DNA of 63,906 nucleotides, counting the filler, from Aduncisulcus paluster (lineage: Eukaryota), in NCBI GenBank assembly GCA_024181965.1. It is 4 parts of 4 records of this genome, joined end to end, with 100 filler letters (N's around TTAATTAATTAA, not from the genome) between each part and the next. Parts side by side here need not be neighbours in the genome. Positions count along the whole stretch, not along the records: positions 42,286 to 56,075 come from BQXS01010797.1; 3 more parts are not named here. One strand, given 5' to 3'. Below the pieces are notes generated by a model. It searched no databases. It worked only from the letters and a program-made list of their open reading frames with translations, and was not told the DNA's origin. Shown here piece after piece: positions 9,001 through 52,015 of the stretch (the stretch's first letter is position 1; each line of letters begins with the position of its first letter). Position numbers and translations under genes: made by a program.

Positions 9001-12000
9001 ACTTGCTCAAGCAGCTTCCTGGGTGAAAAAGGAAGAGTGAAAGAGAGAGATGCTGAGAATTGCTGCAGAATATCATTGACACGAGTAAGGACACACGATA
9101 TGGCATCAGTGGAAGGGATGTGACAAATACAAGAAGTCAAAGCACGTGATGCATGATCAAATGCATCACAAGATAAAGAATCTTTCTTCGAAATCACATT
9201 GTCCATCTCAGAGTTCAGAATAGTTGACCACCATTGTACTTGACGCATCAATCCTTCTCCAATTTGTCGTAAATCCTCACACACTCCTCTGGCTATCTTT
9301 ACAATATCTCTCTGTGTGAATCCACCGACAATGTCACACACGTCACTCTCTCCATGAAGAACAAGAGTGTGTGTGGGCATCTTTGTTACCTGAGAAAGGA
9401 AAGATATGATGTTGCTCTTGCCACTGTTGCTTCTTCCAGTCAAAAGAATCGGAAGAGAAGAGGATAGGGATAAAACAGCACAATGGAATAGATGGAAATG
9501 AGACATGAGAGGTAATTTGGGTGGGATTTGAGAAGAAAAGAAAGGAGAATAGAGAGAGAAATTACGATAAGAGACGGTTCCCACCTTAATAACATAACCA
9601 CAATCAGCTCCATCGTGATCTACACTTGACACAATATTTGAGGAATTGTTCAAATTCTTGAGAACATTGCCAGACAAGTGGAGAGATGGGAAGAAAGATA
9701 CATATTTATAATACCAAAACTCATATCCAGGAATATCGTCAGAACCAAGCATTTGTTTGAGACAAGAGGAAGCAAATGAATCAACAATCCGACGAACTTT
9801 CATACGATCTTTCGTGGTTCTGAATCGCACGGGAAGCATTGACTTTGCGATCGTGAATGCTTTGTACCAGAACTTCAGCATCTTTTCCTTTGAATCTACT
9901 CCCATTTGTTTGATATATTCATCTTTTATGATAATATCATACCATCTCAAGACGTCACGAAGATTCATTTCCCAAGGCTCACCAATGATCCCAATCTCTC
10001 GCGTCTTAATCCTATCAGCAATCCCAAGCACACAATCGAGCATGCTCTCACGAAGGATCGGACAGAGCTCACTGCACACACACTCAAGGACATGAATCAT
10101 ATCAGAATGGGTGAGATGATCGACATACACTTGGGTAAAACGGTTGATAAATGACTGGGGAAGACCTTTACGACCTCCTCCTTCGCATAAAGGGTTTTGT
10201 GTGGCGAAGACTCGGAATGTTGGGGGACACTGGAAGGATTCATTCAATTCAGGAACAAACACAGTGCTTCGATGGTCGAGAAGGGAATTGAGTCCCTCTA
10301 AAACCTGTTGAGGGGCAAGATTGATTTCATCCAGGAGCACCCAAGTGTTCCCTTCCTTGATAGCTCTCAATACAGGACCATCATGCCACTTGAAACATAT
10401 CTTGTGTTCTTGGAGATCATGTGATGACTTGTCCGATGTTCCCTTTGGATCTAAATCACCAGAATTTGAACTACTTGGAAGATCACATCCCATAAGATCA
10501 GCAAGATCGGTCTGGTCACTCAAATTGATCCGAACTAAGCGACATCCACAGACAGCGGCCATAGCAGCAACAAGGGCACTCTTACCCACTCCAGGGCTTC
10601 CTTCGAGCAAAATGGCCTTGTGCAGCATCATGGCACGGCAGATTCTCATTGTATTCATGGCAGTTGTTGGTGGATTGAATGAGAATGTCGTAAGAGAAGG
10701 CATCTGTTTGTGTGTAGTTTCAAGACAGAAAGGTCCAACCGAGAAATAAACAGAAAGTTTGGGTATTGGTTCCTCATGATTAGTTTGAGAAGGAGGACAC
10801 AAAATACACTCACATTTGAGAGGAATCTCCTCAGATGAACGTGTGACAATGATCTTATCTTCACCACTCTCATCTTTTCCAAATGTAACATTTCCTGCAA
10901 GAAGCTTGATGTTCTTATCATCAAATGAGCATTCACGGGTAATCAATTCTTTTATAACATCAGATTCAAGAGAATAAATATCTTTGCACACATGTTTAAT
11001 TGCTGAAAATAGACACGTAAAGCCTTGTTCGATACACATGGAATGAAGTTGAGACGTATGAGTGAACGATAGTCCAGTTCGTTGTGGAAGCCCATCCATA
11101 AACACGAGTGATAGAGCATGAATGAAAGTGGGCAATAATCTCATCCTTGATTCAGACATTCGATGTTCTTCGCCCTCTTTTGCTTCTCCTTCTTTCTCTC
11201 CATTCCAACTTCCAATCCTTCTCTGATTCGACAATAAAGCTCCACACAGTTCACTCCCACTAAGAACATCTCTAACACTCACATTCATGCGACCAAACTG
11301 TCCAGCCTTCGTCATAGAGTGAAGCCACACAAAGAAGCAAGAGAAAGCATGCGTTATGATATCGAGCAAGAGAGAAGATGTTATCGATTCATCATGATTC
11401 CAGGTTCCGACACTCACAGAATCAACGTATTTCCTCATTTTCACACTCATAATAAGCCGAACATCCTCGGCATTCTCAATGGCAGTGACCCACACGGCAC
11501 ACATCCTATTGTTGAGGGCTGGTGATAACTCTTTCTTTCCATAATCGCCACTAGGGTTCATTGTAGCACAAAAACGGAAGTGAGGGTGAGCGACAAGAAC
11601 CTCAGTGGTGTCAGATTTTTGATTCGATGATCCGGTGTTGCTCTTCTCAGCAAGAGTAAGAGTACGATCAGGCTCAAGAACTGAGTTTATACGCTCGAGA
11701 ACAGCATCTTCAGCGTTGTTGATCTCATCGATCATGAACACATTTCCGTTGCGCATAGAAAGCACGAGGGGACCATCATACCATTGGAAGAGCATTGAAT
11801 GCACTGAAATCAGAGTGTCAACAAGACAGGATATTCCTGAAATAATTGGTGACAAGTTATATTCTGAACAGAAAGAAGAAAGACAGGATAGATCTGCGGT
11901 GATATTGGCTCTGGCTTGAGAAAATGAAGGATGGCAATGGTGATACGTGCATGAAGACATATGAAAGAATGAAGATTGAAGTTGGGAAATAATCAAATNN

Positions 12001-15000
12001 NNNNNNNNNNNNNNNNNNCTGAAATAATTGGTGACAAGTTATATTCTGAACAGAAAGAAGAAAGACAGGATAGATCTGCGGTGATATTGGCTCTGGCTTG
12101 AGAAAATGAAGGATGGCAATGGTGATACGTGCATGAAGACATATGAAAGAATGAAGATTGAAGTTGGGAAATAATCAAATTCATCCATTTCGATAATATC
12201 TGAACATCTTCCTCCTTGTGATCAGAAATAAGTCCAGAGAAATCAGAGCATGTTTGAGAAAGATCTCTATAATTAGAAATAACAGACTCCAAAGAATGGT
12301 GAGAGGAAGGTTCTTGTTCCTCTTCTTGTCCTTCTTGTTCTTTCTCAGAATGAGCTATATTTAGAGCAGAAATAGCGAGGACAAAGTCATGAAGAGCCTG
12401 GTATAACGATAATATCCCATCTTCAATCTCTCTTCTCCCTCTGAAAGGACGAACTCCTCCAATGATATCACTGGTCTCAGTGTGCTGATGAGCGTTTAGA
12501 ATGGTCAAAGGGTTAATCAAAGATTGGTTAATTTGTTTTATAGTTTCATCTTTCATATTTTGTTCCTCTTCTTCTTCATCCTTGGACTCTGAACCCTGTT
12601 TGAAGGAAGCCTTATGTTTTTCCATGAGAACAGCACTAACGAGCTGGATAATAGTTGTTTTCCCACCACCAGTGGGTCCAATCAGAAGAGGAGCTTCGTT
12701 ACACTCACTTAACAGCCACCATACAACACTGTAGGCTCTTTTCATAGCCTTAGTCCAGACGATACTTGTATATGGCATCAACAACGGATAAGTAAGCTTA
12801 TCAAAGGGAACAGATGCATCCTCCTCAGTAATGCACACAGCAAGCATATTCCTCACATCTTTAGTGTGCTCATCATAGAGCTCGTCAGTGTTCAGGTTAG
12901 GACATATACCTTTGGAATTGAGGCGTTCTTTCCAATTGCCTTTCTTATCGTCTCTGTCCATCATGAAACACCATTTCTCGATGATGCTTTTGACTCTGGC
13001 TCTCCAAGCTTCATTCCTCTGACGTTCGACAAGAACAAAGAAAGATGCAACACATAGATCGCGTTCATTGGTGATGTTACGTTCGGCTATCCTGAACATA
13101 TCTCTGAGAGTGAGTGAGCTAGAGCTTGTGGTGCTGTTGTGACTGCCATTCTGTTTGTTTCCTTTCAAATTACTGCTGCTAGGGGCACCACGACCACGAC
13201 CACCAGCCAGAACCCCAAGGGATGTACTGTCGCTGCTTGTGCTCTGAGATGTAAGACCGAGATCCATTCTGCCTTGTCCTTCCATGCTCTCCCAGGTCCT
13301 TTCTCTAACAAGTTCACGACGGACGTTCACAAGAATCTCACCGTATTTATGTGCTAGAGAACATTTATCGTGTAAAATAGAAATGATATCAAAGTCGGAG
13401 ATGGAAGAGAAATGAAGTTCAACAAACCGATTTCTGAAGGCTCGACTCAACTCTTTTCGACCCCCATAAATACCACTGGGGTTCTGTGTTGCGAATAGCT
13501 TGAATGAAGGATGTGGTTTGACATACTCACCCGTGGCTGGTATGAATAACTCCCTGTTATCATCAAGGAGACGGTTGAGGGCTTCAAGAACTTCAGATGG
13601 GGCCAGATTCAACTCATCGAGAACAACCCAGGCTCCAGTTTTCATAGCACGCACAAGAGGACCTTCAAAATATTCTATTCTGGCGCTCTCTGTCATAACA
13701 TATCTTCCCACATATTCCTCAAGGTCGGTTTGTTCGTGGTTATTGATTCGAATAAAAGCATTTCCAGTCACCTTGGCCAGATATTTCACAATGCTGGTCT
13801 TTCCTGCAGATGTGGGACCTTCAAGTAATATGGGATATTGACCACACTCGACTGCACGCGATAATTCTTTCAGTTTCCCGAATGCACAGTCAGTGAGGAT
13901 AAATGTAGGATCGACCAATGACACATTAGGACCGCGAGGATGGAAGAATCCTCCGACATGCACGTATCTAGCATGTTGGGAGGCAACATCATCAATAGCA
14001 TCTTGGCCAAGACTGACGCTCTGCATCGAACTTCTCTCAAGAGCCGTCTTAATATTAGAAAGGGAGAAAGAATCTGATTCGCAACCATCCAAGGTCTTAA
14101 CGTCAGAAGGAACGGGTCTAACTGGAACATTAAGCTTTATGACACCACTGGAACTTCCTTTCTTCTTCTTTGTGGCAGTACCCAAGGAGATGTGAAGGTT
14201 GTTGATCAAGTTTTGGATAAGAGGTTTTGATTCATCACTCAACTGAGAGAGGAAATGAAGGGAGAAAGCGTCGTCAACGGCATAGAATCGACCTGCCCCT
14301 CCACATCCTTCACCATAAACATTAACAGCATAATCCTTGATGTATCGCAGAGTTCTACTGTAATTTCTAAGAGAGAAAGACACACTTTTCCCACTTGTGT
14401 CTGAGAGAGAATGACTGGAACAAAGGTCGAGGGAGGCTCTGAATATGTCAACGAAATGGGATAGATATTGCGGGCAAAATGATGAGCCCTCGAGGTAGCT
14501 CTCTGTCAAAGTCATGAGATCAGACACGCTTGTCATCATTCCGACATAAATCTCAGAGAAACACTCTCTCACGTTCGCAGGAAGAGAGGATTTACCTACG
14601 TCTGTGGCAGGATTCATGGCGGCAAAGAGACGGAATGAAGGGTGACGAACTATATCTTGATTGTCTCCTCGTTCAGTTACAAGTAAGGAACCTGAAGATG
14701 ACTCAATTAGTGAATTAAGACGGAACAAAAGAGCAGGCGGGGCAAGATTGATCTCGTCAAGGAGGATCCAGTTACCACGTTGTACAGCTGACACGAGAGA
14801 ACCTTCAATGAATTTAAAGACGGGTCTTCTCACAGCGACTTGAGCTGATGAAGAGGAAGAGGAAGATAATGTGGATTGAACTCCAGCAGTGGCAGTGTCA
14901 ATATGATCATCTTTTTCTTCTTCTTGTCTCGTTTCATCACTGGTCGTGTGATATTGAAGAAATACCTTTGGAAGCATCTCTTGAAGCGATAGTACTTCAT

Positions 15001-16687
15001 CATTCAATGATCTCCAACATTTTTTTTCTTCAGAACCAATGATTCGTTGAGATTTCCTTCTTTTCTTTAACTTTTGTTGCTTCTTGGAAAGTTTGGATTT
15101 CTTTTGTTTTTTGGTAGATTGCTTTTTCTCTTCCTGTTTTTCCATTTCCACGTCGCCATATCTCCTTTTTCCACCAAGTTGAGAAGCTTCTTGTTGGTCA
15201 GACTGATCACACAGCTTGACAAATGCCCCAACGACCCTTGAAATTCTTAACAAAACATCACAAATGTCAGGGGATGGTACAATAAGGTCTCTAATGTGTG
15301 AAATAAACACTCCATCTTCTGGACTCTTGTTATATTTGTCCAGAGCTTCAGATAACTTATCAATAAGACGACTTGAACGAGCGAGGAATACAGATTCCTC
15401 TGGAGATAGATCATTTAATTCATGGGATTCATCCATGACATCCATTTCACTGGCATCAGTAGATTGGTTATGCTCTTTTTCATTCAGGACAACAGGTTTA
15501 AACCCACCAAATAGATCACTAATGTCGCTCTGTTGGGATAAATTGATCACAGAGAGTGGGTGCTGTGTTGCTCGGGCAACATACTCCAAGGAAGTTGTCT
15601 TTCCAACACCTGTCTCACCGACAAGTAGGACGGGTTCATTGTGGACAATGCACCCAAGGAGACGGTCGATCAATTGATTTGTATGATCACAAAAGGCAAG
15701 CTTTGGAGGTTTCTGGATTGATGCCATCGTTTTTGACACCGATGATTCGCTACCATCGATATTACTAGTTTTTTCATGGAACATAGGAAGATGATAACGT
15801 TCACTAACAATACGAGCATCGGCAACATCAAAACGAACACGACGAGCAGAATACTTGTGCGTCACAGTGGAAATGGGAAAGAAAAAGGGGAAGATCTGTT
15901 TGCATACTACGTCTCTAAATAAATGCAAGGAACGTTCAATTTCTTGGTCCCGTGTGAGTTTGCGACGTGATTGTGATTCCAGGGAAGGATCCTCTTCGAG
16001 GAATAAACAAAAACAATCAATCGCAAAGAAATATAGATTTTTTCGAATTTCAGTCGAAATTTTTTCAATACCATCACAGAAAACTTTTACATCATCAGCA
16101 CGAACTGGAGAAAGTATTATGTCATGTTGGGATACATAAGTTGATATTCTGTGGCAGAATTTAAGTAGATCGTGAACTCCAATCATTCGAAATGATGGAG
16201 AACCAACTTTTTCATGAGATTGGAAGAATTTCCGAAGACTCAGAAAAAGTTGGGATATTAAAGAAGAAATGGGTGAGATAATGGGGAAAAGATTGGTTAT
16301 TTTTGAAATTATGGTTTCTTGGGTGATATTTCCAAATTGGATAAGATCATAGTTAAAGAAATTTGAACTAAAGGTGTTATACGAAAAGTATGAAATAAAT
16401 ATCTTAGATTTCAAGCGTTTTCCCTCAAAATAACCCTTTTCTTCCATGTTTTTTAACAAACCCATTTGCGTATGGGAGGCATTGGAGGCGTCTCTGATCC
16501 AAATCGGCTTGCCTTCAATAAGAGCCTCAGCCAATGGACCATATTTTTTAACGATCCTTCCAGATTCATCGGGAAGTACAGAAACAAGTAATGAAGAGAA
16601 GGGAACCGATGAATGGATCGAGAAGCAATCACTATCAAAATAATCATAAAACAATATATTTTCTTCGCCTTCAATAATTGTTATCAT
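1..16687 (-). CDS. MDN1: Midasin/Rea1 AAA-ATPase (3'-partial; MIDAS domain lies beyond the window)
   Basis: ORF 11993..16687 has Walker A motifs GETGVGKT, GPTSAGKT and GPTGGGKT, plus Walker B/sensor motifs LLDEINLA, VLDELNLA and FATQNP. After removing the 182-nt duplication plus gap, the frame continues (GSPGVGKS ~10600, GRSNSGKS ~9430) and is still in frame in the D/E-rich tail at position 1. The ORF track reports no stop-bounded ORF in this frame, consistent with it being open to the edge. Confidence 0.96.
11837..12180. repeat. Assembly artefact: 162-bp exact duplication (11837-11998 = 12019-12180) around a 20-N gap
   Basis: The same sequence flanks both sides of the N run; collapsing it restores the midasin frame. 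Confidence 0.93.
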
Positions 16688-42675: not shown

Positions 42676-43005
42676 TTAAAAGGAATCAACGTGAGATAAT
42701 AAATCGAGGTATAATTGAGAATAAATCGTAAATTGACAAATTAAAACCTTGACAATTCAAAGGAAAATCAAATGACTGGTTTTTATACAGACTCAATGGG
42801 AGCAAACTTCAGGGTTTCTTTCACTCAAACCTAGAGCTCCAAATAAAGCTGTTCTAATTATTTGAGAAGGTGTCTCTTAACTTTCTTTGATTTTACTAAT
42901 AATTATTTAGCAGGAAATACAAATTATATTGAGTCTTAAAATCGAATGTGAAAATTTCCAATTTGGAAAGGTAAACACAAATATATTCAAATATTTTGAT
43001 AAAAT

Positions 43006-44361
43006 ATGGATCAAAAGCGTAGGTTAGAAATGCTTAAACTTGCCGAAGAGGAGGAACGGATGGCAAGAATTAACAAAGCAAAAGTATCCGAAAGATGGAG
43101 GTCTGTGCTGCGAGAAGTTAAGAAAGAAGACCTTGTTGAAGAGTTAGAGCTATTATCTCAATCGTATGAACGTCAACTTGATACAAAAGATGGTGTTATC
43201 CGTTTATTGAATTCATATTTGGAATTGGCTGATGAGCAGCATAAAAGAGAAGTTCGTCAGCAGGTGTCCACACTTGATGAGATTGCATTACTTGGCAAAA
43301 GGCATTTATCTAAACTGCAGAGTGAGTTTGATTCATCGAGCGCGGCTCTGAAGGAAGAATATAAAAAAGAAATGGAAGAGATGGAACGCCGTCATTTGTA
43401 CCAGGTTAGGACGCAAGCTGCAATCATTCAAGCATTGAAAGCTGAGCAAAGTCGTAAAGAGAAGTCCCTAAAAGATGATCAAGAGGCTCAATTGTCTGCT
43501 CTTCACAGTAGTAGTCGTGAAACCATCAATATTATGCGTTTAACACTCAAAGCACGTCAAGATCAGCTCAAAGAACATTTCAAAGAATCGCATGCCGCTT
43601 ATGTTGCTGCCACAGAACAACGTTCACGGAACTACAAGGCTCTCCGTAATAACGACCAACGTAAGAGTGCAGACATCACCGAACAGGCCAAGAAACTTAA
43701 GAAATTGCAGGCTTCACTTGCCAAATGGCGAGCCAAGCTTTCATCGACAGAAGCCGAGTATGCAGGTCGAAATGCCACTCTTCGGGAGGAAAAAGCTGGT
43801 GTCACGAGACATTTCTCATCATTGAAGCGAATGATGGTCCATATGCGTGAAGAGGAACGCAAACGTCTTGCTCGTCTTGTGCTTAAGACCAAAGAGGTTG
43901 AGAAGAAACTTGAGAGTCAGAAATCCCAAGGTGAGCGTGTTCTTCGTCTTGCCCAACTGTGCATGAAGCTTGAGACTGATTACGAGCGCATCCGTCCCTT
44001 CGCAAGCCATATTGAGAGCATCGAACTCAAGGATGAGATAGATGCAGAACGTGAGGAAGAACTGAAGCATCGAAAGGAAGAAGAGGAGATGGAAGGCGAG
44101 AAAGCCGAGGTTGACAAAGAGATCAAAGAAGTTATTACGAGTGCTGAGGGTTTACGTCCATTCTACCGTCGTATGAATAGAGTTCTGATGGATAGATTGG
44201 CTCTGGAGAGACAACAGGCTGCTCTAAGAGAGGAGAATCGTCTATTGAGAGAAGCTTTGCAGGAGTTCTTGGATGGTCTGACCATTAATGATCACACATT
44301 CGACCAAGAGAATCCCATTATGGTCGTCGAAGGGTTTGATGTACGGGAACCTGGATTGTAA
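43006..44361 (+). CDS. CCDC65: Dynein regulatory complex subunit 2
   Basis: WRSVLREVK..L..ELE.LSQ.YER..D.KD.VI and F..R.N.V.......LREEN..LR..L..FLDG.TI.......NP motifs; coiled coil throughout. Confidence 0.9.
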   Translation: MDQKRRLEMLKLAEEEERMARINKAKVSERWRSVLREVKKEDLVEELELLSQSYERQLDTKDGVIRLLNSYLELADEQHKREVRQQVSTLDEIALLGKRHLSKLQSEFDSSSAALKEEYKKEMEEMERRHLYQVRTQAAIIQALKAEQSRKEKSLKDDQEAQLSALHSSSRETINIMRLTLKARQDQLKEHFKESHAAYVAATEQRSRNYKALRNNDQRKSADITEQAKKLKKLQASLAKWRAKLSSTEAEYAGRNATLREEKAGVTRHFSSLKRMMVHMREEERKRLARLVLKTKEVEKKLESQKSQGERVLRLAQLCMKLETDYERIRPFASHIESIELKDEIDAEREEELKHRKEEEEMEGEKAEVDKEIKEVITSAEGLRPFYRRMNRVLMDRLALERQQAALREENRLLREALQEFLDGLTINDHTFDQENPIMVVEGFDVREPGL

Positions 44362-44878
44362 GAATAGATTTTAGATATTAGATCATTTTAATAGGCATAA
44401 GAATCGTTATCATTTTATTAAAATATAGTAAAGTAAATATTATTATCTAATGATTATTATTGTCAACGTCTGCTTTTTGTGCATGATCCTCTTATGATCC
44501 CTCTAAACACGGGGGGATTGAGTTTCTGAATTGTCATGCATTATCCATTCAGATGATGAAATATCATGTTTCTGGTGTTTAATGAGTCAGAGATTGGCAT
44601 AGTTGATCGAAGATATCTCAATGGATATAGAAGGTCACGCTAGAAAAGATAGAATCCGACTTCTCACCAAAATAATCAAAACTTCAGAAACTATCGGTAT
44701 ATTAATTCAATAGTAAAATTTCTATTCAGATTGTGGCTAATTTAAGAAAGAAAACAAAAACAGGGATATCAACGCCTATCATGGAATCCTTGATATGCAC
44801 CGACAACATTTATAATTTAACGTCATATATTGTAACTTTATAATCATCATATGTTGTAACTTTACAATGCAATATGCG

Positions 44879-45103
44879 AACAAAACTCGGGAGTTAGGAA
44901 ACGATTTTGAGTCAGGAGTGGAATAGCAAGACTAGCTTCCAATATATGTTAGAAAGAAATCATCTGTATTTTTTAATCGATATATTCTGCAATGTCATTT
45001 TGCAATGTTATTATACAGACTTTTGAATTCTGAAACTTCATTTCTTCCCGTTGTAAAAGAAATATTGAAAATATTGTATGTCATAATTTTTCGTTTATTG
45101 AAT
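44879..45103 (+). promoter_or_regulatory. Conserved non-coding upstream element, copy 2; possible 5'-UTR intron 45076-45277
   Basis: Collinear similarity to 21061-21293; GTATGT at 45076 and CTCTTCAG at 45277 precede ATG 45295. Confidence 0.6.
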
Positions 45104-45294
45104 ATTAAATTCTTGTCAATCCATAATCACCCCATTTTATTCATTGGTTCTATCGCTGGCTGTTCTTGTCGTCATTTCCTCCTTGAAACTCACTAAATGT
45201 TCGATAATTGTGGTATTATTCTTTGTTAAAATATCATATTGTTTAATTTTAATTTATTTTATTCGTATTCTCTTCAGAGATAATCTCAAATATT

Positions 45295-46911
45295 ATGGAT
45301 CCGATAGTAGAGTCCCCAACGTTAATTCATGAAGGAAATGCATTTTGTTGTCCAATTCCCCGAGATTCTACCAATATTACGAATCCAATGTGTTCAACAA
45401 TCGAAGCAGTGAATACCACCAAGGAAGTTGGTGATAAAGACTATGATCAAACATATGACGCACAATGTATGATTAAAGGAGGGAATTCTTATGAAGAATA
45501 TACCTATATATCCCTTCCTTTCTCCTCTTCTTACATTAAAGGCGCTTACATCTGTATCGGAGGAGAATCGACTTCGCATCTCATCTTTTCCTTATCTTCT
45601 TCAACAGGAGAGAATATGTCAAAGAAGTTTGAATTTCCTGAATTAGAAACATGTCGTTGGTTCTTTCTGTCTTTTGATATCTCTGATGTCATTCTGTGTA
45701 AAATTACTGGGAAAGGAAGAGGAGAAGAGTTTTTTAGAATCGAATCTCTCTTTTTCATCAGTAGAGAAGAAACCTCTGAGGAAATCAAAGCCCGTGAAGC
45801 TAAAGAGAAACTATGGGCTGAAGCTCCAATTGTGAAACCAGAGTTTGTAAAGGAAGGAGACAACAATCGTTTATCTAGAGGAGAAAATAATATTCCCATT
45901 CCCCGTGACGATCCATATGTCAAAAAACCTTTAGTAGATTCGGTTTATTGTAAGGACGATTCGAATTGTAAGGAAAGTAATGGGTATAATAGGAGTTCAG
46001 ATGCACAAAAAATGTTAAAAGGGGAACATGACGTTGACTTGTCTTATCTTTCCATCCCTTTTCCAATGCCTTCTCAAACATCACCTAGTTCCATGAAAGG
46101 TGCTTATATCAGTGTGGATGAAGATTCCAGTTCACCCTGTCTTCTCTTCACTTTCACTGATTGTGATGGTAAGAAGACATCCAAAAAGTACGAATTCAGA
46201 AGACCTAAACATTGGTGTGAATGGCATTTTCTTCCCATTGATTTGTCGAATATTGTATTGTGTGAGATTGAAGGAAAAGGAATGTGGAAAGAGAAGAATA
46301 GTCGATCTTTTTGCATCTATTCTTTGGTTTTCCTCCAACAACGTATTGTATCTGGAAAAGTGCAGTATATTCATGACGGATATGCCTCAAGTATTCCAAT
46401 ACCTCGAGATGCTCCGACTTTTATCAATCCATTTTTTTCAGATATTACTGCAACAGCAAGATACAAAGGGCATGATGGAGATGACATTGTTAGTAATTGG
46501 GCAAAAAGTATGATGATGGGCGATGATCCATTTACAGAATTCTATTCTTGTATTTCCATTCCTTTCAAAGAAGAACCTCCCACTTCTATAAAAGGTGCAT
46601 ATATCTGTGTAGGGAATTTGTCTAGCTCCAATTTAACTCTTCTTTTCACATTCAATGCTTCAACTGAAAGTGAAATATCATATTTATATAAATTTGACAG
46701 GTTTATTGTTGATGCAATTGAGAGAAGAGAAAACAAATTTTGGTTTTATCTTACAATTAATCTCCCTGATGTGGTGTCGTGTATTGTTGAAGGTGGTGAG
46801 AGAAAAGGAGAGAATTTTAGAGTCATTTCCCTTGCTTTTTATCGAAAAGAAACCCCTGCTGAAGAGATTAGTAGAAAAGATAGAGAATTAGCTCAAAAAA
46901 AATGTGGGTAA
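45295..46911 (+). CDS. Lineage-specific repeat-domain protein, units 1-3 (~170 aa each); probably the 5' part of the next ORF
   Basis: Each unit carries PIPRD...SIPF...KGAYICV...LLFTF...W.FL.I.L..V..C.I.G...F.I.SL.F. The ORF ends at an A8 run overlapping the next ATG. Confidence 0.85.
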   Translation: MDPIVESPTLIHEGNAFCCPIPRDSTNITNPMCSTIEAVNTTKEVGDKDYDQTYDAQCMIKGGNSYEEYTYISLPFSSSYIKGAYICIGGESTSHLIFSLSSSTGENMSKKFEFPELETCRWFFLSFDISDVILCKITGKGRGEEFFRIESLFFISREETSEEIKAREAKEKLWAEAPIVKPEFVKEGDNNRLSRGENNIPIPRDDPYVKKPLVDSVYCKDDSNCKESNGYNRSSDAQKMLKGEHDVDLSYLSIPFPMPSQTSPSSMKGAYISVDEDSSSPCLLFTFTDCDGKKTSKKYEFRRPKHWCEWHFLPIDLSNIVLCEIEGKGMWKEKNSRSFCIYSLVFLQQRIVSGKVQYIHDGYASSIPIPRDAPTFINPFFSDITATARYKGHDGDDIVSNWAKSMMMGDDPFTEFYSCISIPFKEEPPTSIKGAYICVGNLSSSNLTLLFTFNASTESEISYLYKFDRFIVDAIERRENKFWFYLTINLPDVVSCIVEGGERKGENFRVISLAFYRKETPAEEISRKDRELAQKKCG

Positions 46912-49900
46912 ATTCTTTGACTATAAAACCTGAATTTATAAAGGAGGGCATAGGATCTTCTATTCCCATTACACGAGATAATCCGTTTGTCATACATCCT
47001 ACCTTAGAGGTTACGGGAAAAGACGAAGTAAGTTGTGTAGAATCTGAGCATCATAATCAAAGTTTACATGCACAAAAAATATTTAAAGAGGAAATTTATG
47101 ATAAAGAGTTATTATCCCATCTTTCCATCCCTTTTCCATCATCAATTACAGAGCCACTGCGTATGAAAGGTGCTTATATCTGTGTGAATAAGCTTGATAG
47201 TTCACCTCAACTTCTCTTTACTTTCACTGATTGTGATGGTAAGAAAACATCCAAGAAATACGAATTCAGAAGACCTGAATGTTTATTTGAATGGCACTTC
47301 CTTCCTATTGATTTGATAAATGTTGAATTGTGTGAGATTGAAGGGAAAGGAGAGTGGCTGGAGAAGAACAGTCGACGCTTTAAAATCAATTCCCTTGTTT
47401 TCATCAAAGGAGATTTTTGCCAATTCCCTCATTCAAAAGTATTTGATACAAGTGAAACTATTACTCGTTCAAAGCTTGTTAAATGCATTCGGGATCAGGA
47501 AAATGAAGATGAATTGGAGAGTATTATTTGGTATTCTCATGTTTTCGATAAGGATATTGTTTCTAATCTATTTGATTCGGAGCTTCTTGAAATGATCAGG
47601 AGGATTCCTCTCCCCGATCCTCGGCTCTATAATCCCTTCGTAGCTCCAGCTATCGATATATCCAAACAATTTTATCATCTTCGAATTATTGCTCATTCCG
47701 TTCAGACTGATATTCCAGTTGATGATATTATTGAATTGTATAGACATATTGGTTTTGGTGCGAGTCATAATCATCGAGTTCTGTTAATTGAGTTACCTCA
47801 AGGACATATTGTATATACATCTAATAGGAATTCTCAAGTTGAAAAAATTGATTGTTATCATGTTGCAGAAAGTATGAAATCTAATATTTTCACTCTCAAA
47901 GATTTCCAATCTGCTCTTGAAGATCCAGATCAGTTTGGTCTTGAGTTACTCTATCGTGGAATCATTGCAAAATATATCCCTGTGAATACCATTGAGTATT
48001 ATGAAGGTGAAGAAGAAGAAGAGGAAGAAGCTTCTAGTTTATTAGATCCCAGGATATTAGATCTATCAAAATATGGCGATGATGTTTGTTCTGCATTAAC
48101 CCTTAGCAATATAAGTAACTTTCAACAAGAATTTAATGGCAAGCGACTTATTGACTATGCTGCTTATTATGGTGATCTATTGGTGATTCGAGAACTTGTT
48201 CGTCATAAAGATTATAATTTTGATTCCGTAAATCGTGAACTTTCGTATATTTTTGATTCTAGGACAACTCCAGAAGGAATTCCTCTTGGGGCGTCACTTG
48301 ATAAAGATTCTGGATTAACCGCCATTGAATTTGCTATCAAAAGTCCTTTTCATGATTCAGCAGAAGTTATTTCTGAACTATTGCAACTACCTATGGATAA
48401 GGGTGCAAGCGATAAAATTAAAACATTTGTTAACAAATATATGAAATCTGATTTGAGTCTTCTTGGATTGGCTGTTGAGTGCGATAAAGCAAATATTGTA
48501 AAATATTTGCTGTTCAACCTTGGTGTTAATCCTTGCCAACCCATTCGTAGAGGTTGTTTTAAAACTCCTTTAGCCAGAGCTTTATCAAGAGAGAATGGCG
48601 AAGCATGTGCAAACTTATTGGTATCCGTGAAACATGATTGGCCTGTTGGTTTAAAATTGGATAAATATGATTGGCAAATTAAATTAACAAATCGTATTGA
48701 AGAATGTACAAAGCTTTTGCAGGGTAATATTGGAGAAGTTGAAACGGAAGAGGGAAATATCAATTTATTTGAGGAAATGAAAGAGTTGAATTGTGAGATT
48801 CGTAACCAAATGGATTTGCTGAAATCCTATAAAAAGTGGCGTGATGAATCAACCAAAAAAAGTACAATTCAAGAATACAACACTCAAATTAATTTTTTGG
48901 AAAAAGACATCGAGGAAATGAAACATAAGCTGGTCGAAATGAAATCCTCGATGGAACGTATGACAAACCGCATAAAAAATAAGATTGAAGCTAAAATGAA
49001 ATCCAAAGAAATTTTGCCCACTTGGAGATCCCTTGATAATCATTCTGCCGCATATGTTGCGTTCAAAGCGTATCAATTTAACATATATGCCTTTTTGAGA
49101 AGTAATCGTTATTTTCCACTTGAAGATGAGCGAAAAGATGGATCCATGTCGGTAGAATCTCTTGATGGTTTTGATCGGATGTTTCTAAAAAATTCATTTG
49201 CTGATAGATCTGTTCGCATGGATACATCCCTTGTAATGTTCTTACTCTCTAAAACACGTATTTTGCAAGAAGATAAAACTCTTTTTGATATTATGCGGTC
49301 AGCTTATGAAGATTTAAATGAAATTCCACTGATTCGTCCCATTATTCAAGTGCTTGAAGCTCATCATGGAAATCTGGATATTGTTGTTGATTTTGACAAT
49401 GATAATGTCGGTGAAGTTTCGGCTTCTTCTGCTGAAGATTCTATAGGTCTTGCAGATTATGATGATGGTCGTATATTTATTGCCGCAAATCGATTCCATC
49501 GTGAAAAATGGGATTATTCTCAAATGGTTGGAACAATTGCTCATGAACTTACTCACTTGGCAATGCAAGATGTTTTTCAAAATATTTATAAACCATATTC
49601 TGCCTCTTTTGAAATTGATTCAAGAGAAGATACCGTGGAAGAAAAAGAAATTGAATCTCGTATTCCAGAAGAATATCGAATTATAGATAAGATACCAAAA
49701 GGGTTAAAATATGCAATATATGAAGCATTTTTAAATTTATACTCAAAGAGCGAGGGAGAACAGCGTATTCCTTTCCATCTCCATTTTCCTGATACAATTC
49801 TTGGGAGAGTTTTTAGATGTTATACAGCAGATTTGTGGTTTCGTGAAATTATTGTACGTGTTCCAGAATTGTTGGCTACATTTGGACAGGGGGAGGGAAA

Positions 49901-50378
49901 GAAAAAACTTATAAATACTGCTCCCAAGTTATTATCATGGTTTATAAAACATGTAAAACCAAAATGTGATGAATATATTATTACAGAAAACAAAGGGACT
50001 TTATATGGAACTGACGCTCTTCCAGAGAAACAACTCTTTGCTTCATCAAGTATGATCCATGGTCATGATTATGCTTCTGTAATAAGTTCCATATTGGCCC
50101 CATTAACACCAAAAGACAAAGAAGTGGCTTCAATTTTGACACAACAAACCATTGCAGATAGAGAAGTTGATAGAGATAGAAAAGACTCACGAGATAGTTA
50201 TGATTTGATTCAAGTCAGTGATATTGTTCCTGATGAATTAGAAACTACTCCATCACATCCATCTTCCAACACATATCATTTTGATATGTTACTATTGGTT
50301 GTATTCATTATATATCTATTATTATCATTATATATTATTATTGAACAATGTTCAATCGGTTCGTGTTTCTATTTTTAG
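46902..50378 (+). CDS. Repeat unit 4 + ankyrin repeats + coiled coil + HExxH metallopeptidase-like domain + C-terminal TM helix
   Basis: Ankyrin-like segments GKRLIDYAAYYGDLLVIRELV, GLTAIEFAI, LLGLAVECDKANIVKYLL and TPLARAL. GTIAHELTHLAMQ at 49542-49556; hydrophobic tail LLLVVFIIYLLLSLYIII. Confidence 0.85.
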   Translation: MWVNSLTIKPEFIKEGIGSSIPITRDNPFVIHPTLEVTGKDEVSCVESEHHNQSLHAQKIFKEEIYDKELLSHLSIPFPSSITEPLRMKGAYICVNKLDSSPQLLFTFTDCDGKKTSKKYEFRRPECLFEWHFLPIDLINVELCEIEGKGEWLEKNSRRFKINSLVFIKGDFCQFPHSKVFDTSETITRSKLVKCIRDQENEDELESIIWYSHVFDKDIVSNLFDSELLEMIRRIPLPDPRLYNPFVAPAIDISKQFYHLRIIAHSVQTDIPVDDIIELYRHIGFGASHNHRVLLIELPQGHIVYTSNRNSQVEKIDCYHVAESMKSNIFTLKDFQSALEDPDQFGLELLYRGIIAKYIPVNTIEYYEGEEEEEEEASSLLDPRILDLSKYGDDVCSALTLSNISNFQQEFNGKRLIDYAAYYGDLLVIRELVRHKDYNFDSVNRELSYIFDSRTTPEGIPLGASLDKDSGLTAIEFAIKSPFHDSAEVISELLQLPMDKGASDKIKTFVNKYMKSDLSLLGLAVECDKANIVKYLLFNLGVNPCQPIRRGCFKTPLARALSRENGEACANLLVSVKHDWPVGLKLDKYDWQIKLTNRIEECTKLLQGNIGEVETEEGNINLFEEMKELNCEIRNQMDLLKSYKKWRDESTKKSTIQEYNTQINFLEKDIEEMKHKLVEMKSSMERMTNRIKNKIEAKMKSKEILPTWRSLDNHSAAYVAFKAYQFNIYAFLRSNRYFPLEDERKDGSMSVESLDGFDRMFLKNSFADRSVRMDTSLVMFLLSKTRILQEDKTLFDIMRSAYEDLNEIPLIRPIIQVLEAHHGNLDIVVDFDNDNVGEVSASSAEDSIGLADYDDGRIFIAANRFHREKWDYSQMVGTIAHELTHLAMQDVFQNIYKPYSASFEIDSREDTVEEKEIESRIPEEYRIIDKIPKGLKYAIYEAFLNLYSKSEGEQRIPFHLHFPDTILGRVFRCYTADLWFREIIVRVPELLATFGQGEGKKKLINTAPKLLSWFIKHVKPKCDEYIITENKGTLYGTDALPEKQLFASSSMIHGHDYASVISSILAPLTPKDKEVASILTQQTIADREVDRDRKDSRDSYDLIQVSDIVPDELETTPSHPSSNTYHFDMLLLVVFIIYLLLSLYIIIEQCSIGSCFYF

Positions 50379-50589
50379 ATTTATTACATTTTGGTTCCGC
50401 GTCATAGAGCATTGGACTCAATGAGAAAGCCCGAATACAAGATTGATTTTGTGATTTAGTTTCCGCTAATACAGTATTGTACAGTAATACCATTAATAAT
50501 GGTCCATTCCATTATCTGCTATAGTTCACTATAATATAAAATACATTTATTGCCTGGAAAGGGATACAAAACAACGAGCATTCATTCTT

Positions 50590-51030
50590 TCCACTACTTC
50601 TCTTCCTCTTCTTTCTTTTCTTCTCCAATTTCATCTGTCCCATATGTTCCTTGATCAAACATCGCTTCAACACCTCCACCTGTGCGTTCAATCAAATCAT
50701 ACATAGATTGTCTCAAAGATCTTTCCTCATGACTTCGTAATTGATGTCACGGCATACTTCTCACCAGATCCTTCATCAGCATTCATCTTGCTCAATTCAG
50801 CTTCACTCGGATCATTGGTGTCAAAAAGGTCACAATCAATTTCTTGAGAGAGGATTCGTCAAGTGTCAATTTAGAACAATCATTATTTTCATCATGATCA
50901 GCATCGCCGAAATCAGAAGACATACAAGCACATTCATGTTGGACAAATAAGGATAAACATTCGAAACAGAGCGTGAACAGGGCTCTATCAGATGTAAGAG
51001 CAGAGGATGAATCTCCAATGGAGCTTGGAA
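50590..51030 (-). pseudogene. Mosaic of decayed gene fragments
   Basis: Coding-like minus-strand pieces: LFTLCFECLSLFVQH...LIVTFLTPMIRV, then a frameshift to EAELSKMNADEG; separately LRSHEERSLRQSMYDLIER...EEKKEEEEK*. No proper starts. Confidence 0.45.
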
Positions 51031-51033
51031 AGA

Positions 51034-52015
51034 TCATAAAGATTATAAATTTGATTCCGTAAATTCTTATGGTGAAACCGCCATTGAGATTGCAATTATG
51101 AGACATGATTCTCCAGAAATTATTTCTGAACTATTGAAACTACCAATGGATAAGAGTGCAAGCGATGAAATTATGAGATTTGTTAACAAATATATGAAAT
51201 CTGGTTGGAGGCTTCTTGGTTTGGCTGTTCAGTGTGATAAAGCAAATATTGCACAGTATTTGCTGAAACTTGGTGCAAATCCTTGCGATAAAATTCATAA
51301 AGATGGTTCTGAAACTCCTTTAGCCAGAGCTTTATCAAGAGAGAATGGCGAGGCATGTGCAAACTTATTGGTATCCGTGAAACACGAATGGCCTGTTGGT
51401 TTAAAATTGGATAAGTACACGTGGCATAAAACCTTGAAAACGAAGATTGATGAATGTACAAAAATATTGGAAAAAGGAAAAGTTTATAAAATCGAGGAGA
51501 AAATGGACTCGGGGGATATTTTCCGTGATTGGAGATCACGTGATAATCAATCAGCTACATGTGTTGCTTTTAAAGCACATAACTTTGATATGTATGCCTA
51601 TTTGAGAACTCACCGTTATTCTCCTTCTGATACTGAACTACAAACAATGTTGATTGATAATGATGAAGATCGAAAAGCTCTTGCAAAAGCATTGTTGAAT
51701 CAATCTGAAAGTATCAATTCCTCTCTAATCTTGTTTATGCGCTCTAAAACACGTATTTTACAAAAGGGTGAGGTTTTTGAAAATGAACTGGAAAAAATTT
51801 ACCAAAAACTCGATAAGATTCCAATGATTCGCATTATCCTCCAAGTTCTTGAAGCTTATCCGGGGAAATTGGATGTAGTTGTTGATTTTGATCGCGATGT
51901 TGTTGATGAAATGACACCAACTGCTAAATCAAAAAAACATAGCAGGGTTCGAGGAAATGCATCCGTGACTACTAAGAACCAACCACACCACATCGCCCTC
52001 CGATGTGCTCATTAG
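51034..52015 (+). pseudogene. Paralog of the ankyrin region of 46902..50378, truncated at both ends
   Basis: DNA similarity begins abruptly at TCATAAAGATTATAA (51034 vs 48203), with an in-frame TGA upstream at 51008. Near-identical TPLARALSRENGEACANLLVSVKH; similarity ends ~51925, before HExxH. Confidence 0.75.

Follow-up and report, generated by a model that had tools for sequence, protein, structure and literature searches.

The best structural neighbours of the modelled zincin domain described here are the PPEP peptidases (PPEP-1, PPEP-2 and PPEP-3) and the catalytic domain of anthrax lethal factor, of MEROPS family M34. These peptidases and the zincin domain all carry an HExxH motif, a downstream Glu on a later helix (a predicted one in the zincin domain), and a Tyr a few residues before that Glu. 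The Tyr-Glu spacing is 7 in PPEP/lethal factor peptidases, and 8 residues in the zincin domain. The mutant names E143A/Y178F stand in the PDB titles for PPEP-1, and from these names we assume catalytic roles for E143 and Y178. PPEP and lethal factor lack the ankyrin-like cap at the N-terminus of the zincin domain, as well as an insertion of about 40 residues that the domain has in the protein from Aduncisulcus paluster (P0002, see below); moreover, the protein is predicted to be cytosolic and membrane-tethered, whereas PPEP and lethal factor are secreted. No lethal factor or PPEP chain in the PDB was found by phmmer with P0002 (E ≤ 1) or by hmmsearch with the profile of the zincin alignment (E ≤ 10), and the profile matched only designed PDB proteins, at E ≥ 0.27.

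The same zincin domain and helical cap are carried by arthropod NACHT-ankyrin proteins (for instance Chamberlinius hualienensis CHUAL_006847, Dryococelus australis PR048_026930, and Ornithodoros turicata LOC135386295), which are 29-33% identical across 89-92% of the query region and have the same invariant residues as P0002. In the arthropod proteins, however, the zincin lies N-terminal to a NACHT NTPase, long ankyrin arrays are situated elsewhere in the protein, jelly-roll units are absent, and the sequences fall in another part of the tree than P0002. The ankyrin-zincin order of P0002 is found in a Legionella qingyii protein (WP_110142733.1; 28% identity over P0002 710-1025, E 2e-34) and in two Rickettsiales MAG proteins; these three bacterial proteins, with open frames of 845-1,049 aa, are placed with short forms in trees and have neither jelly-roll units nor the coiled-coil insertion. 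NLR/STAND immune receptors are built around a central NACHT or NB-ARC domain, whereas no NACHT or AAA match was obtained with either part of the A. paluster protein. The putative ankyrin-linked zinc protease of A. paluster is of an uncharacterised type that also occurs in NACHT proteins of arthropods and in a small number of intracellular bacteria.

The A. paluster gene occupies 45295..50378, on the + strand like every feature given below, of the window, by which we mean the whole stretch of 63,906 nucleotides, filler included, that was analysed. It appears there as two ORFs, 45295..46911 and 46902..50378, the products of which (538 and 1,158 aa) are referred to as P0001 and P0002. The two ORFs overlap in a run of eight A residues (46895..46902), which is all that separates them and which is one base shorter than in the contigs of two public runs, X1 and X2. 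Adding one A fuses the frames into a single ORF, P0001 1-536 followed by P0002 1-1158, through the sequence ...RELAQKKMWVNSLTIKPEF, which resembles the linker between units 1 and 2, ...REAKEKLWAEAPIVKPEF. The additional A, behind 46894, was present at all of the depth in the public run contigs (1352.3/1352.3 in X1 and 4.1/4.1 in X2, one contig each). We therefore attribute the apparent frameshift to a missing A in the A8 run, and the joined ORF is 1,694 aa long. The original prediction had joined the two ORFs into one gene of an estimated ~1,690 aa with the architecture described here, and all of the features that it listed were found where it had placed them.

If the frameshift were real, the locus would encode a short four-unit protein and a 1,158-aa ankyrin-zincin protein starting from the ATG at 46902, or would be a pseudogene. 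The window itself does have A8 with an ATG exactly at 46902, and the public annotation also crosses the A-run by an intron, which suggests that the run is A8 in that assembly too. A second ORF beginning at 46902 would, however, start within the linker of a jelly-roll unit (KPEFIKEG), the conservation of both frames reaches the A-run, and the contigs of both runs uniformly carry the added base, which leaves this alternative barely plausible.

The public model to which the intron belongs (GKT34337.1, here P0012, from A. paluster), the exons of which match the window at 100% and 99.8%, is a 2,092-aa protein in which the zincin gene is fused to DRC2 (dynein regulatory complex subunit 2), an intron covers the frameshift, and another last exon replaces the hydrophobic tail, so that the membrane helix is missing. 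P0012 is the deposited annotation, and its predicted introns at 44341/45309 and around the A-run have GT..AG ends. Nevertheless, the DRC2 ORF stops unaided six codons past the proposed donor, contig 9 of X2 covers 43035-44871, that donor included, without a splice, and neither the joint 44340>45310 nor any joint near 50286 was found among the 15 of 19 joints listed. Each frame of the stretch that the intron over the A-run takes out has homology to other inter-unit linkers, and conserved linker residues would be lost with it; furthermore, the ATG at 45295 fits the usual N-terminus of the unit family, and relatives too finish in a hydrophobic segment. The depth of X2, a run only guessed to be RNA, was 188 over DRC2 and 3-9 over the zincin gene, which argues against a fused transcript, and evidence for expression of the zincin gene is correspondingly thin. 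GKT34337.1 is probably wrong, and that it should be correct in full seems to us very improbable.

The culture of A. paluster contains food bacteria (PMC9933649), and the nearest named sequences outside A. paluster in the tree are bacterial, as would be expected if the module were a bacterial contaminant or if an assembler had joined a protist repeat family to a bacterial ankyrin protein. A chimeric or contaminant join was one of the outcomes by which the original prediction proposed to be refuted, and the reads point the other way. The depth of X1 was flat, 1,233-1,250, over DRC2 and the zincin gene, with 1,233 over the module against 1,250 over the flanking eukaryotic genes, and an independent contig (X1 contig 6, 47328-48591) spans the junction of unit 4 with the module at ~47420. 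The GC content of the gene (0.34-0.35) equals that of its surroundings, it lies among eukaryotic genes (midasin, kinesin, adaptin, primase, DRC2, S28 peptidase, and IQUB), the same unit-to-module junction was recognised by eye at another locus (P0062), and a tandem paralog fragment lies downstream of the gene. Contamination or chimerism is thus scarcely credible. We consider it likely that the locus is one intact nuclear gene of A. paluster, or of a near-identical strain, and that its 1,694-aa product, made of four jelly-roll units, an ankyrin-zincin module and a C-terminal helix, is a tail-anchored cytosolic protease. From N- to C-terminus, the product would be composed of jelly rolls in the order A-B-A'-B, a conserved region, ankyrins, a coiled-coil-like helix, the zincin, and a hydrophobic helix.

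The four N-terminal units of about 170 aa each are unit 1 (A-type, 45295..45810), unit 2 (B-type, 45811..46353), unit 3 (divergent A-type, 46354..46899, followed by a helical linker into the A-run), and unit 4 (B-type, 46902..47420, which is also detected as nucleotide repeat D1 at 80%). The units were delimited by an alignment with 28 invariant columns, in which identity to unit 1 is 34-39% and units 2 and 4 share about 57% of their residues. An AF2 model of the first two units (pLDDT 92, pTM 0.87) gave 270 Foldseek matches at E ≤ 0.001, among them the tandem CBM32-1/2 pair of ZmpB (E 1.3e-7), which matches both modelled units. With the same model, VIA returned 59 chains at Z ≥ 8, including 7jnb (Z 12.6), APC10 (Z 11.4), IFT25 (Z 10.9, rmsd 2.9 Å, 118 aligned) and DOC domains (Z 10.2-10.6), and the single-unit matches had an rmsd of 2.7-3.6 Å over 115-139 residues. 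As modelled, the units are jelly rolls of the galactose-binding-domain-like fold, which they have in common with CBM32, F5/8 type C, APC10-DOC, IFT25 and PITH domains (Z 9-12.6, rmsd ~3 Å, ~120 residues per unit); the VIA rows are tied within 1-2 Z, so that the units are assigned to the fold and to no subfamily of it. They differ from those modules in being without a sequence-family match and confined to one lineage, in numbering hundreds of copies, and in their expected cytosolic location. No Pfam family was matched in P0001 at E ≤ 1, including F5_F8_type_C, ANAPC10 and PITH.

The expectation that the N-terminal units represent a lineage-specific, expanded family was borne out, as at least 186 proteins carry the unit at E ≤ 0.001 and all 120 of 120 among the matches listed are from A. 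paluster, the draft genome of which has 15,316 predicted proteins (PMC9933649). A search for other domains joined to the units, which the original prediction had proposed, uncovered fusions to kinase, thioredoxin and MSP domains. Unit paralogs are ~60% identical with most positions conserved, and in 59 aligned unit sequences the most variable positions cluster in inter-strand loops.

Unit 4 is followed by a conserved region (P0002 ~175-405, 47424..48116) that is common to the short-form relatives; it is LRR-like in some of them (LRR_4 in 1 of 22), and in P0002 it matched nothing in Pfam or the Atlas. BLASTP aligned P0002 242-607 with residues 169-498 of a relative, P0003 (31% identity, E 2e-41), and P0002 680-1046 with the same protein at E 4e-52. 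Probable ankyrin repeats (P0002 ~406-600, 48117..48701) open with the conserved motif GKRLIDYAAYYGD. The Ank_2 match in P0002 itself is weak (residues 419-544, E 1.4e-4, 22.8 bits against a gathering cut-off of 27.3); however, Ank_2 was detected at E ≤ 0.01 in all 22 aligned short forms, a count that includes the row of P0002 at 23.5 bits, and ten tabulated short forms scored 27.5-49.8 bits. The repeats are followed by a heptad-rich charged helix (P0002 ~608-700, 48723..49001), which is probably a coiled coil, judging from its sequence: 40% of residues 608-700 are charged, 35-residue windows within 643-705 have hydrophobic residues at 7-10 of 10 a/d positions and lack Pro and Gly, and there are weak Pfam rows of the coiled-coil type. 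Residues 608-680 fall in a BLASTP gap, being inserted relative to P0003, and are absent also from the downstream paralog fragment.

The zincin (gluzincin-type) domain with its N-terminal ankyrin-like helical cap extends over P0002 700-1025 (48999..49976), as defined by the alignment, an AF2 model, VIA, and 1,574 related clusters. The sequence GTIAHELTHLAMQ was found, in which HELTH corresponds to P0002 881-885 (49542..49556), and His881, Glu882 and His885 (1417, 1418 and 1421 of the joined protein) are conserved in 139, 141 and 142 of 142 aligned relatives. The distal Glu that had been chosen as a possible ligand, in WFREIIVRVP (P0002 979-988), is Glu982, which is invariant (142/142), and Tyr974, eight residues upstream in YTADLWFRE (49821..49847), is conserved in 126/142; Glu982 is the candidate third zinc ligand. 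In the AF2 model (pLDDT 69.9, pTM 0.70, 69 residues below 50), HELTH is within a predicted helix at model positions 173-193 and Glu982 within another at 277-295. A wide VIA search with this model yielded lethal factor (1yqy_A, Z 9.7, rmsd 5.1, 174 aligned), PPEP-2 (6fpc_A, Z 8.3), PPEP-3 (9g0j_A, Z 8.2) and lugdulysin (Z 7.9), values of 8-10 being modestly above the background stated by the tool, and the majority of the best 50 rows were zinc metallopeptidases or zincin-like domains, judged by title. Foldseek gave no PDB match at E ≤ 0.001, although its top rows were nonetheless zincins. These searches support, with a model of moderate confidence, the predicted zincin fold of the HExxH domain.

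No peptidase family of Pfam, NCBIfam or PADLOC reached threshold on P0001 or P0002, and the weak Pfam links of the module relatives are to DUF6782 and SprT-like. Of all Pfam families, only DUF6782 (PF20573), a putative metallopeptidase family, matches the zincin domain recurrently. Its matches are in 7 of the 22 short forms and 3 of the 24 long forms (with a best E of 8.7e-10, in one long form), and there is none in P0002 at E ≤ 1. Five tabulated matches in ten short forms scored 17-21 bits against a cut-off of 27, and the aligned profile positions, ~26-101, cover the strands and the HExxH helix, that is, the N-terminal third only. No mention of DUF6782 was found in the literature searched.

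An insertion of about 40 residues in P0002 (within 897-964, model 198-265), missing from most relatives, lies between the helices that carry HExxH and Glu982 and might obstruct or control the active site. The domain might be zincin-like in fold and yet be an HExxH-type oxygenase, a metal enzyme of another kind, or a binding domain without catalytic activity; the insertion, unique and adjoining the active-site helix, and the failure of peptidase family models to match at threshold would both be in keeping with this, as would the presence among the structural neighbours of the ChlB HExxH oxygenase domain (Z 6.8), SjiH-Ni (Z 6.9) and YbeY (Z 6.0-6.3). Peptidases are, however, the best neighbours and make up most of the rows listed by VIA, and the near-invariant H-E-x-x-H...Y...E set of the 142 relatives fits the peptidase pattern; a non-peptidase is unlikely. 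With His881, Glu882, His885 and the candidate ligand Glu982 intact, we infer that the domain is a gluzincin-type zinc metallopeptidase, which would hydrolyse peptide bonds.

Similarity to P0003 stops at residue 1046, and beyond that point neither BLASTP nor the short-form alignment detected similarity to relatives; the linker (P0002 1026-1128, 49977..50285) leads to the last feature (50286..50378), which consists of a hydrophobic helix, MLLLVVFIIYLLLSLYIII (1129-1147), followed by 11 further residues and the stop codon. Residues 1123-1154 are the only segment of P0002 at or above 1.6 on the Kyte-Doolittle scale, with a peak of 3.09 at 1129-1147, 11 residues from the end. The Kyte-Doolittle scan of P0001 revealed no strongly hydrophobic segment, hence no signal peptide. 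A single transmembrane helix at most about 30-50 residues from the C-terminus, in a protein without an N-terminal signal peptide, is the sequence pattern of a tail anchor, and on this ground we expect all of the protein to lie on the cytosolic side. Hydrophobic segments recur at the C-termini of P0003, P0014, P0090 and other relatives. By sequence, the protein would be tail-anchored, a class that enters the membrane post-translationally, and would be tethered there with its bulk in the cytosol.

The ankyrin-zincin family, which is without a Pfam model, comprises 1,574, 1,143 and 594 clusters at E ≤ 1e-3, 1e-10 and 1e-30, respectively. Its named members are from arthropods, Legionella qingyii and A. 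paluster. The original prediction had placed the motif string in dipterans and other arthropods; arthropods (millipede, stick insects, beetles, and tick) indeed account for 10 of the 15 organism-named relatives, but no dipteran is among the 15. In bacteria the module is sporadic: a pattern scan of 185,579 species representatives detected 4 loci, and when genomes were sampled from the family to which the L. qingyii genome belongs, 3 of the 149 that were scored carried it.

In the tree, the four copies from A. paluster are a monophyletic group that forms a clade with P0003 (support 99), nested in a short-form clade (97-99) that holds a Rickettsiales MAG and apart from the arthropod forms. Elsewhere the ankyrin-zincin(-TM) part is a free-standing protein of ~770-1,050 aa, so that a module joined to a lineage-specific domain, as the original prediction had it, is a fair description. 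The further claim that a foreign module was grafted is conjectural: the tree places the copies, as one group, among short forms that include a Rickettsiales MAG, and a transfer could have run either way.

Under the explanation that we favour, the conserved-region/ankyrin and zincin parts with the C-terminal helix would be the older module, found alone in the ~770-1,050-aa proteins, which in A. paluster would have been joined to the organism's own jelly-roll family before it was duplicated. A protein or glycan located at the membrane surface would serve as the target of the jelly-roll, ankyrin and conserved-region modules, the coiled coil may allow the protein to pair, and the zincin domain would cleave the bound target or a protein next to it. 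The target could be a molecule of an invader, detected by variable jelly-roll units and acted on by the tethered protease, in which case the protein would be a sensor-effector of innate defence. This role is suggested by analogy, entirely from the association with NACHT in other organisms and the expansion of the units. Among the long forms sampled, 19 of 24 combine the zincin domain with a NACHT STAND NTPase, relatives are present in intracellular bacteria, the unit proteins are a lineage-specific expansion within the predicted proteome, and their variability is concentrated in the loops. On the other hand, the protein has no NACHT or other switch domain, PADLOC gave no match, most unit positions are conserved among the paralogs, and the fusions of the unit family to kinase, thioredoxin and MSP domains fit a general adaptor equally well. 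We regard a defence function as doubtful. A bolder version, in which the ankyrin-capped zincin is a mobile effector module of conflict or immunity, common to arthropod NACHT receptors, effector-like proteins of intracellular bacteria and A. paluster, and became an NTPase-free sensor through transfer between a protist and its intracellular bacteria and the addition of hyper-expanded, loop-variable units, is decidedly unlikely; if true, a free-living metamonad would have a protease tethered to the membrane that recognises patterns and acts in innate immunity as a sensor without an NTPase switch.

The genome of A. paluster has at least four copies of the module and one truncated tandem fragment, located downstream of the gene at 51034..51910. 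The fragment was identified by tblastn (57% and 44%), by translation, and by nucleotide repeats D2-D4, D7 and D8 at 72-97%. It matches P0002 435-627 and 694-828, corresponding to ankyrin repeats and the start of the zincin domain; it has no coiled coil and stops before the HExxH motif.

Two ORFs on the plus strand, P0001 (45295..46911, 538 aa) and P0002 (46902..50378, 1,158 aa), meet at a run of eight A residues (46895-46902), and the addition of a single A fuses their frames to read ...RELAQKK-MWVNSLTIKPEF, which mirrors the linker joining unit 1 to unit 2, ...REAKEKLWAEAPIVKPEF. Contigs from two public sequencing runs, X1 and X2, were compared with positions 43000-51000 of the window. The additional A accounted for the entire depth at the run of A residues in both (1352.3 of 1352.3 in X1 and 4.1 of 4.1 in X2, one contig in each case), indicating that the split is a one-base homopolymer error of the assembly and that the gene is a single ORF. 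The two ORFs had been taken as one gene in the original prediction, and the contigs bear this out, the joined ORF encoding 1,694 aa. The features proposed for the protein were all confirmed: four N-terminal units of ~170 aa; GTIAHELTHLAMQ, with HELTH at P0002 881-885; WFREIIVRVP, with its Glu at P0002 982; and a stretch at P0002 ~608-705, probably a coiled coil, that is heptad-rich, 40% charged and free of proline. The hydrophobic segment at the C-terminus (P0002 1123-1154 of 1,158) is the sole strongly hydrophobic one, and none is found at the N-terminus; the protein has one hydrophobic helix, at its C-terminus, and lacks a signal peptide. The ankyrin repeats were detected by Ank_2 at E<=0.01, but the match in this protein is weak (22.8 bits versus a cut-off of 27.3). 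A Pfam scan at E<=0.01 matched Ank_2 in all 22 aligned short forms, relatives with the ankyrin-zincin layout, P0002 included.

It could be argued that the gene is a contaminant or the product of a chimeric join. [quoted passage not shown] The other ORFs of the window are ordinary eukaryotic genes, encoding midasin, kinesin, adaptin, the DNA primase small subunit, BCD1, a DEAD helicase, an ABC transporter, DRC2 (NYD-SP28), an S28 peptidase, IQUB and MatE, and the GC content of the gene (0.34-0.35) is like that of its surroundings. X1 depth is flat, at 1,250 over DRC2 and 1,233-1,244 over the gene, and a separate X1 contig (47328-48591) spans the join of unit 4 to the remainder of the protein. 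Given these observations, contamination or a chimeric join is very unlikely.

Downstream of the gene lies a truncated tandem paralog (51034-51910, plus strand) that comprises ankyrin repeats and the beginning of the zincin domain. At the nucleotide level it is 72-97% identical to 48203-49415; the coiled-coil insertion is missing, and the copy stops before HExxH; an Ank_2 match is retained in ORF 51098..52015 of this area. Summed contig depth is strongly raised in the intergenic regions flanking the gene, upstream at 44869-45215 (up to 61,648) and downstream at 50476-50742 (up to 16,064), versus about 1,250, and contigs break at both; both stretches are presumably either repeated elements or flanking sequence that members of the unit family share. 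At the intergenic position 50804, an extra A was seen in about half of the depth (X1 3814.3 of 7818.7, X2 22.9 of 67.4), which is either a polymorphism or a difference between paralogs.

A profile search returned a public gene model at this locus, P0012 (GKT34337.1, 2,092 aa), named 'Dynein regulatory complex protein like protein [Aduncisulcus paluster]'. The identity of its exons to the window is 100% over 445 aa and 99.8% over 520 aa. The model (43006-50378) fuses DRC2 (NYD-SP28) to the gene through an intron at 44341-45309, which accounts for its name. The DRC2 ORF stops on its own six codons past the 44341 donor (VREPGL, then stop), an unspliced X2 contig (43035-44871) crosses that donor, and the typical N-terminus of the unit family, M followed after ~15 residues by HEG..CCPIPRD, fits the ATG at 45295. 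A second GT..AG intron is laid over the run of A residues, between TPAEEI and RSSIPITRD, and deletes linker residues conserved among units. At the other end, a short alternative exon replaces the last 30 residues, which hold the hydrophobic helix; this exon (IALDSMRKPEYKIDFVI) was not found in the three plus-strand frames of 50201-51200, and hydrophobic C-terminal segments are also present in the relatives P0003, P0014 and P0090 (Kyte-Doolittle >=1.97), with others visible in A5, the alignment of short forms. Neither a joint 44340>45310 nor any joint near 50286 occurs among the 15 of 19 joints listed. X2 depth is 188 over DRC2 versus 3-9 over the gene while X1 is flat, a pattern that RNA would give, the kind of X2 ('RNA?') being only a guess; stretches for which no X2 contig is listed (such as 50158-50334) are no evidence regarding expression. 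We conclude that P0012 is probably wrong in fusing DRC2, in placing a false intron over the homopolymer error and in losing the membrane anchor, and proteome-based analyses of A. paluster should allow for this faulty model.

A search with P0002 740-1040 yielded nine proteins, whose domains were aligned with that of the window (alignment A1). Invariant positions include D830-F831, H881, E882, H885, N894, P898, Y974, E982 and R986 (P0002 numbering). Among 142 near-full-length relatives, H881, E882 and H885 are kept in 139, 141 and 142, the distal Glu in all 142, and the Tyr eight residues ahead of it in 126; the alignments thus show an intact, conserved catalytic motif. The AF2 model of the domain is moderate (pLDDT 69.9, pTM 0.70), its low-confidence part being an insertion of ~40 residues that most relatives lack, and it places Glu982, the candidate zinc ligand, within a predicted helix. 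In Foldseek against the PDB no match reached E<=0.001, but every top row was a zincin (Wss1, lethal factor, PPEP, collagenases and selecase). In a wide VIA-align search of 48,161 representatives, the nearest neighbours were the catalytic domain of anthrax lethal factor (Z 9.7, 174 residues aligned), PPEP-2 (8.3), PPEP-3 (8.2), Lugdulysin (7.9), Collagenase T (7.1) and Wss1 (7.0), these Z values being modestly above the background stated for the tool. Most of the 50 rows listed are, by title, zinc metallopeptidases or zincin-like domains. On the basis of these neighbours, the domain has a zincin fold, closest to those of lethal factor and PPEP, at Z values modestly above background.

Only two sequence models, DUF6782 and SprT-like, touch the domain. 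DUF6782 matches seven of the 22 short forms (the five tabulated among ten score 17-21 bits, below the 27-bit cut-off) and three of 24 long forms (best E 8.7e-10); the SprT-like matches to relatives are weak, and P0002 itself matches neither model in Pfam. Searches of PDB sequences gave two irrelevant rows with P0002 (phmmer, E 0.14-0.28) and designed helical proteins only with the A1 profile (E>=0.27). NCBIfam and PADLOC returned only coiled-coil or ankyrin noise for P0002 and its relatives. ESM Atlas leads for the zincin part (0.89-0.91, mostly Bacillota clusters, 139-141 shared features) were set aside because scores in this range are reached by chance, and P0002 175-405 gave no usable match there.

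The protein belongs to a wide ankyrin-zincin family. The A1 profile matches 1,574 clusters (50% identity) at E<=1e-3, 1,143 at 1e-10 and 594 at 1e-30, with members of 161 to 4,082 aa among the matches listed. An organism is stated for 15 of 39 relatives checked by name (nine from the region search and 30 looked up): ten are from arthropods (three millipede, four stick insect, two beetle and one tick), four from A. paluster and one from Legionella qingyii. The arthropod contigs range from 27 kb to 159 Mb, and eight of the ten exceed 12 Mb. A pattern scan of 185,579 prokaryotic species representatives gave four loci: a single Rickettsiales MAG has two, and L. qingyii and a Gammaproteobacteria MAG have one each. 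Of 149 genomes scored in a sample from the family to which the L. qingyii genome belongs, 3 had a match. Two open frames of about 498 aa in genomes of that taxonomic family (L011 in G145 and L012 in G135) match the zincin profile at the catalytic core only (~124-277; E 2.6e-28 and 7.7e-24) and are shorter forms lacking the helical cap.

Short forms (about 770-1,050 aa) have the full layout of P0002 175-1050. The relative P0003 aligns with P0002 242-607 (31%, E 2e-41) and 680-1046 (34%, E 4e-52), P0002 608-680 being an insertion relative to it. Among the 24 long forms scanned, 19 carry NACHT and 21 Ank_2, and in three tabulated NACHT forms the zincin is N-terminal to NACHT. Three metagenomic proteins of about 1,850-1,930 aa (P0009-P0011) combine the conserved, unassigned region (P0002 ~175-405), ankyrin repeats, zincin, NACHT and a C-terminal repeat array; P0011 has an extra weak N-terminal OTU-like match (PF02338, E 0.044). 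In the 155 best family members, a profile of the units matches only P0002, P0005 and P0012, and, among the members examined, only A. paluster showed the combination of four jelly-roll units, ankyrin repeats, zincin and tail anchor. A homology search with A5 was flooded by ankyrin words, and of its 16 matches P0062, an N-terminally partial A. paluster protein, was alone relevant, so that the taxonomic range was not extended. P0062 starts with the end of a unit, and its junction to the module (conserved region, ankyrin and zincin) is, by eye, that of the protein in the window, which argues that the fusion predates this duplication.

Two trees were constructed, one with FastTree from 142 zincin domains and one with IQ-TREE (LG+C20, SH-aLRT) from 60 rows, comprising 57 chosen relatives, two Rickettsiales frames and the domain from the window. 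Only segments spanning at least 240 profile positions were kept, and P0012 was omitted from both because it is the same gene as that of the window. In both trees the four A. paluster copies form one group (support 89), to which P0003 is sister (99), inside a short-form clade (97-99) that includes the Rickettsiales MAG proteins, and the arthropod NACHT forms are placed elsewhere. The original prediction held that the module was foreign; as the trees lack a root and most taxon labels are missing, such an origin is possible.

The N-terminal units gave a confident AF2 model (units 1-2, built from an alignment of 59 two-unit sequences; pLDDT 92, pTM 0.87), in which each unit is a jelly-roll beta-sandwich of the galactose-binding-domain-like kind. 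Foldseek returned 270 matches at E<=0.001, the best being ZmpB's tandem CBM32-1/CBM32-2 pair (E 1.3e-7). With VIA-align the matches were 7jnb over both units (Z 12.6), APC10 (11.4 and 10.9), IFT25 (10.9; rmsd 2.9 A, 118 aligned), the DOC domains of HECTD3, CUL7 and HERC2 (10.2-10.6), Muskelin discoidin (10.2), many CBM32 modules (~10) and PITH (9.8); since these rows are tied, the fold can be assigned and the subfamily cannot. No Pfam model matches the units. Inter-strand loops usually form the binding face of galactose-binding-domain-like folds, and the most variable positions of the 59 aligned unit-family sequences cluster in these loops.

The units belong to a large family whose expansion is lineage-specific. 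It comprises at least 186 proteins (E<=0.001, 295-942 aa), compared with 15,316 predicted proteins in the announced draft genome (PMC9933649), and all 120 matches listed are from A. paluster. Summed contig depth over the unit cores (45670-46470 and 47005-47538) reaches 407,593 versus about 1,250 for single-copy sequence (~300x), which fits hundreds of near-identical genomic stretches. Most members are free-standing A+B two-unit proteins that are about 365 aa long and lack a signal peptide. Precomputed Pfam matches reveal fusions to kinase (P0196, P0215), thioredoxin (P0213, P0257), MSP (P0260) and chromo/integrase (P0270) domains. The thioredoxin fusions resemble the Trx+PITH layout of TXNL1, PITH being among the fold matches of the units. 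A jelly-roll family confined to this lineage has been recruited into several fusions, with kinase, thioredoxin, MSP and the ankyrin-zincin protease.

The joined protein is probably tail-anchored with every domain in the cytosol. Its jelly-roll, ankyrin and P0002 ~175-405 regions would recruit a target, which the zincin would then cleave, and molecules may pair through the coiled coil. The protein lacks an NTPase switch. A defence role is a possibility suggested by the NACHT association elsewhere in the family and the expansion of the units.

The chemistry and folds of the 1,694-aa protein are of known kinds. The ankyrin-zincin family itself has neither a Pfam model of its own nor a solved structure, and no description of it was found in the literature searched. 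The zincin domain is not described in nine relevant passages of PMC8195603, whose supplements or figure source data could list it. The same literature yielded no mention of DUF6782 and no tail-anchored ankyrin metalloprotease effector of Legionella. What the searches define is a large metallopeptidase-like family of 1,574 clusters with near-invariant catalytic residues. Its domain is N-terminal in many arthropod NACHT-ankyrin proteins and is present also in Legionella and Rickettsiales, so that the biochemistry of any member would inform both invertebrate NLR-like and bacterial effector biology.

Elsewhere in the window, two adjacent minus-strand ORFs, 3-11960 (3,986 aa, open-ended) and 11993-16687 (1,564 aa), each have midasin-type AAA_5 and AAA-lid matches and probably belong to a single midasin gene that either a short intron or another assembly error has divided.
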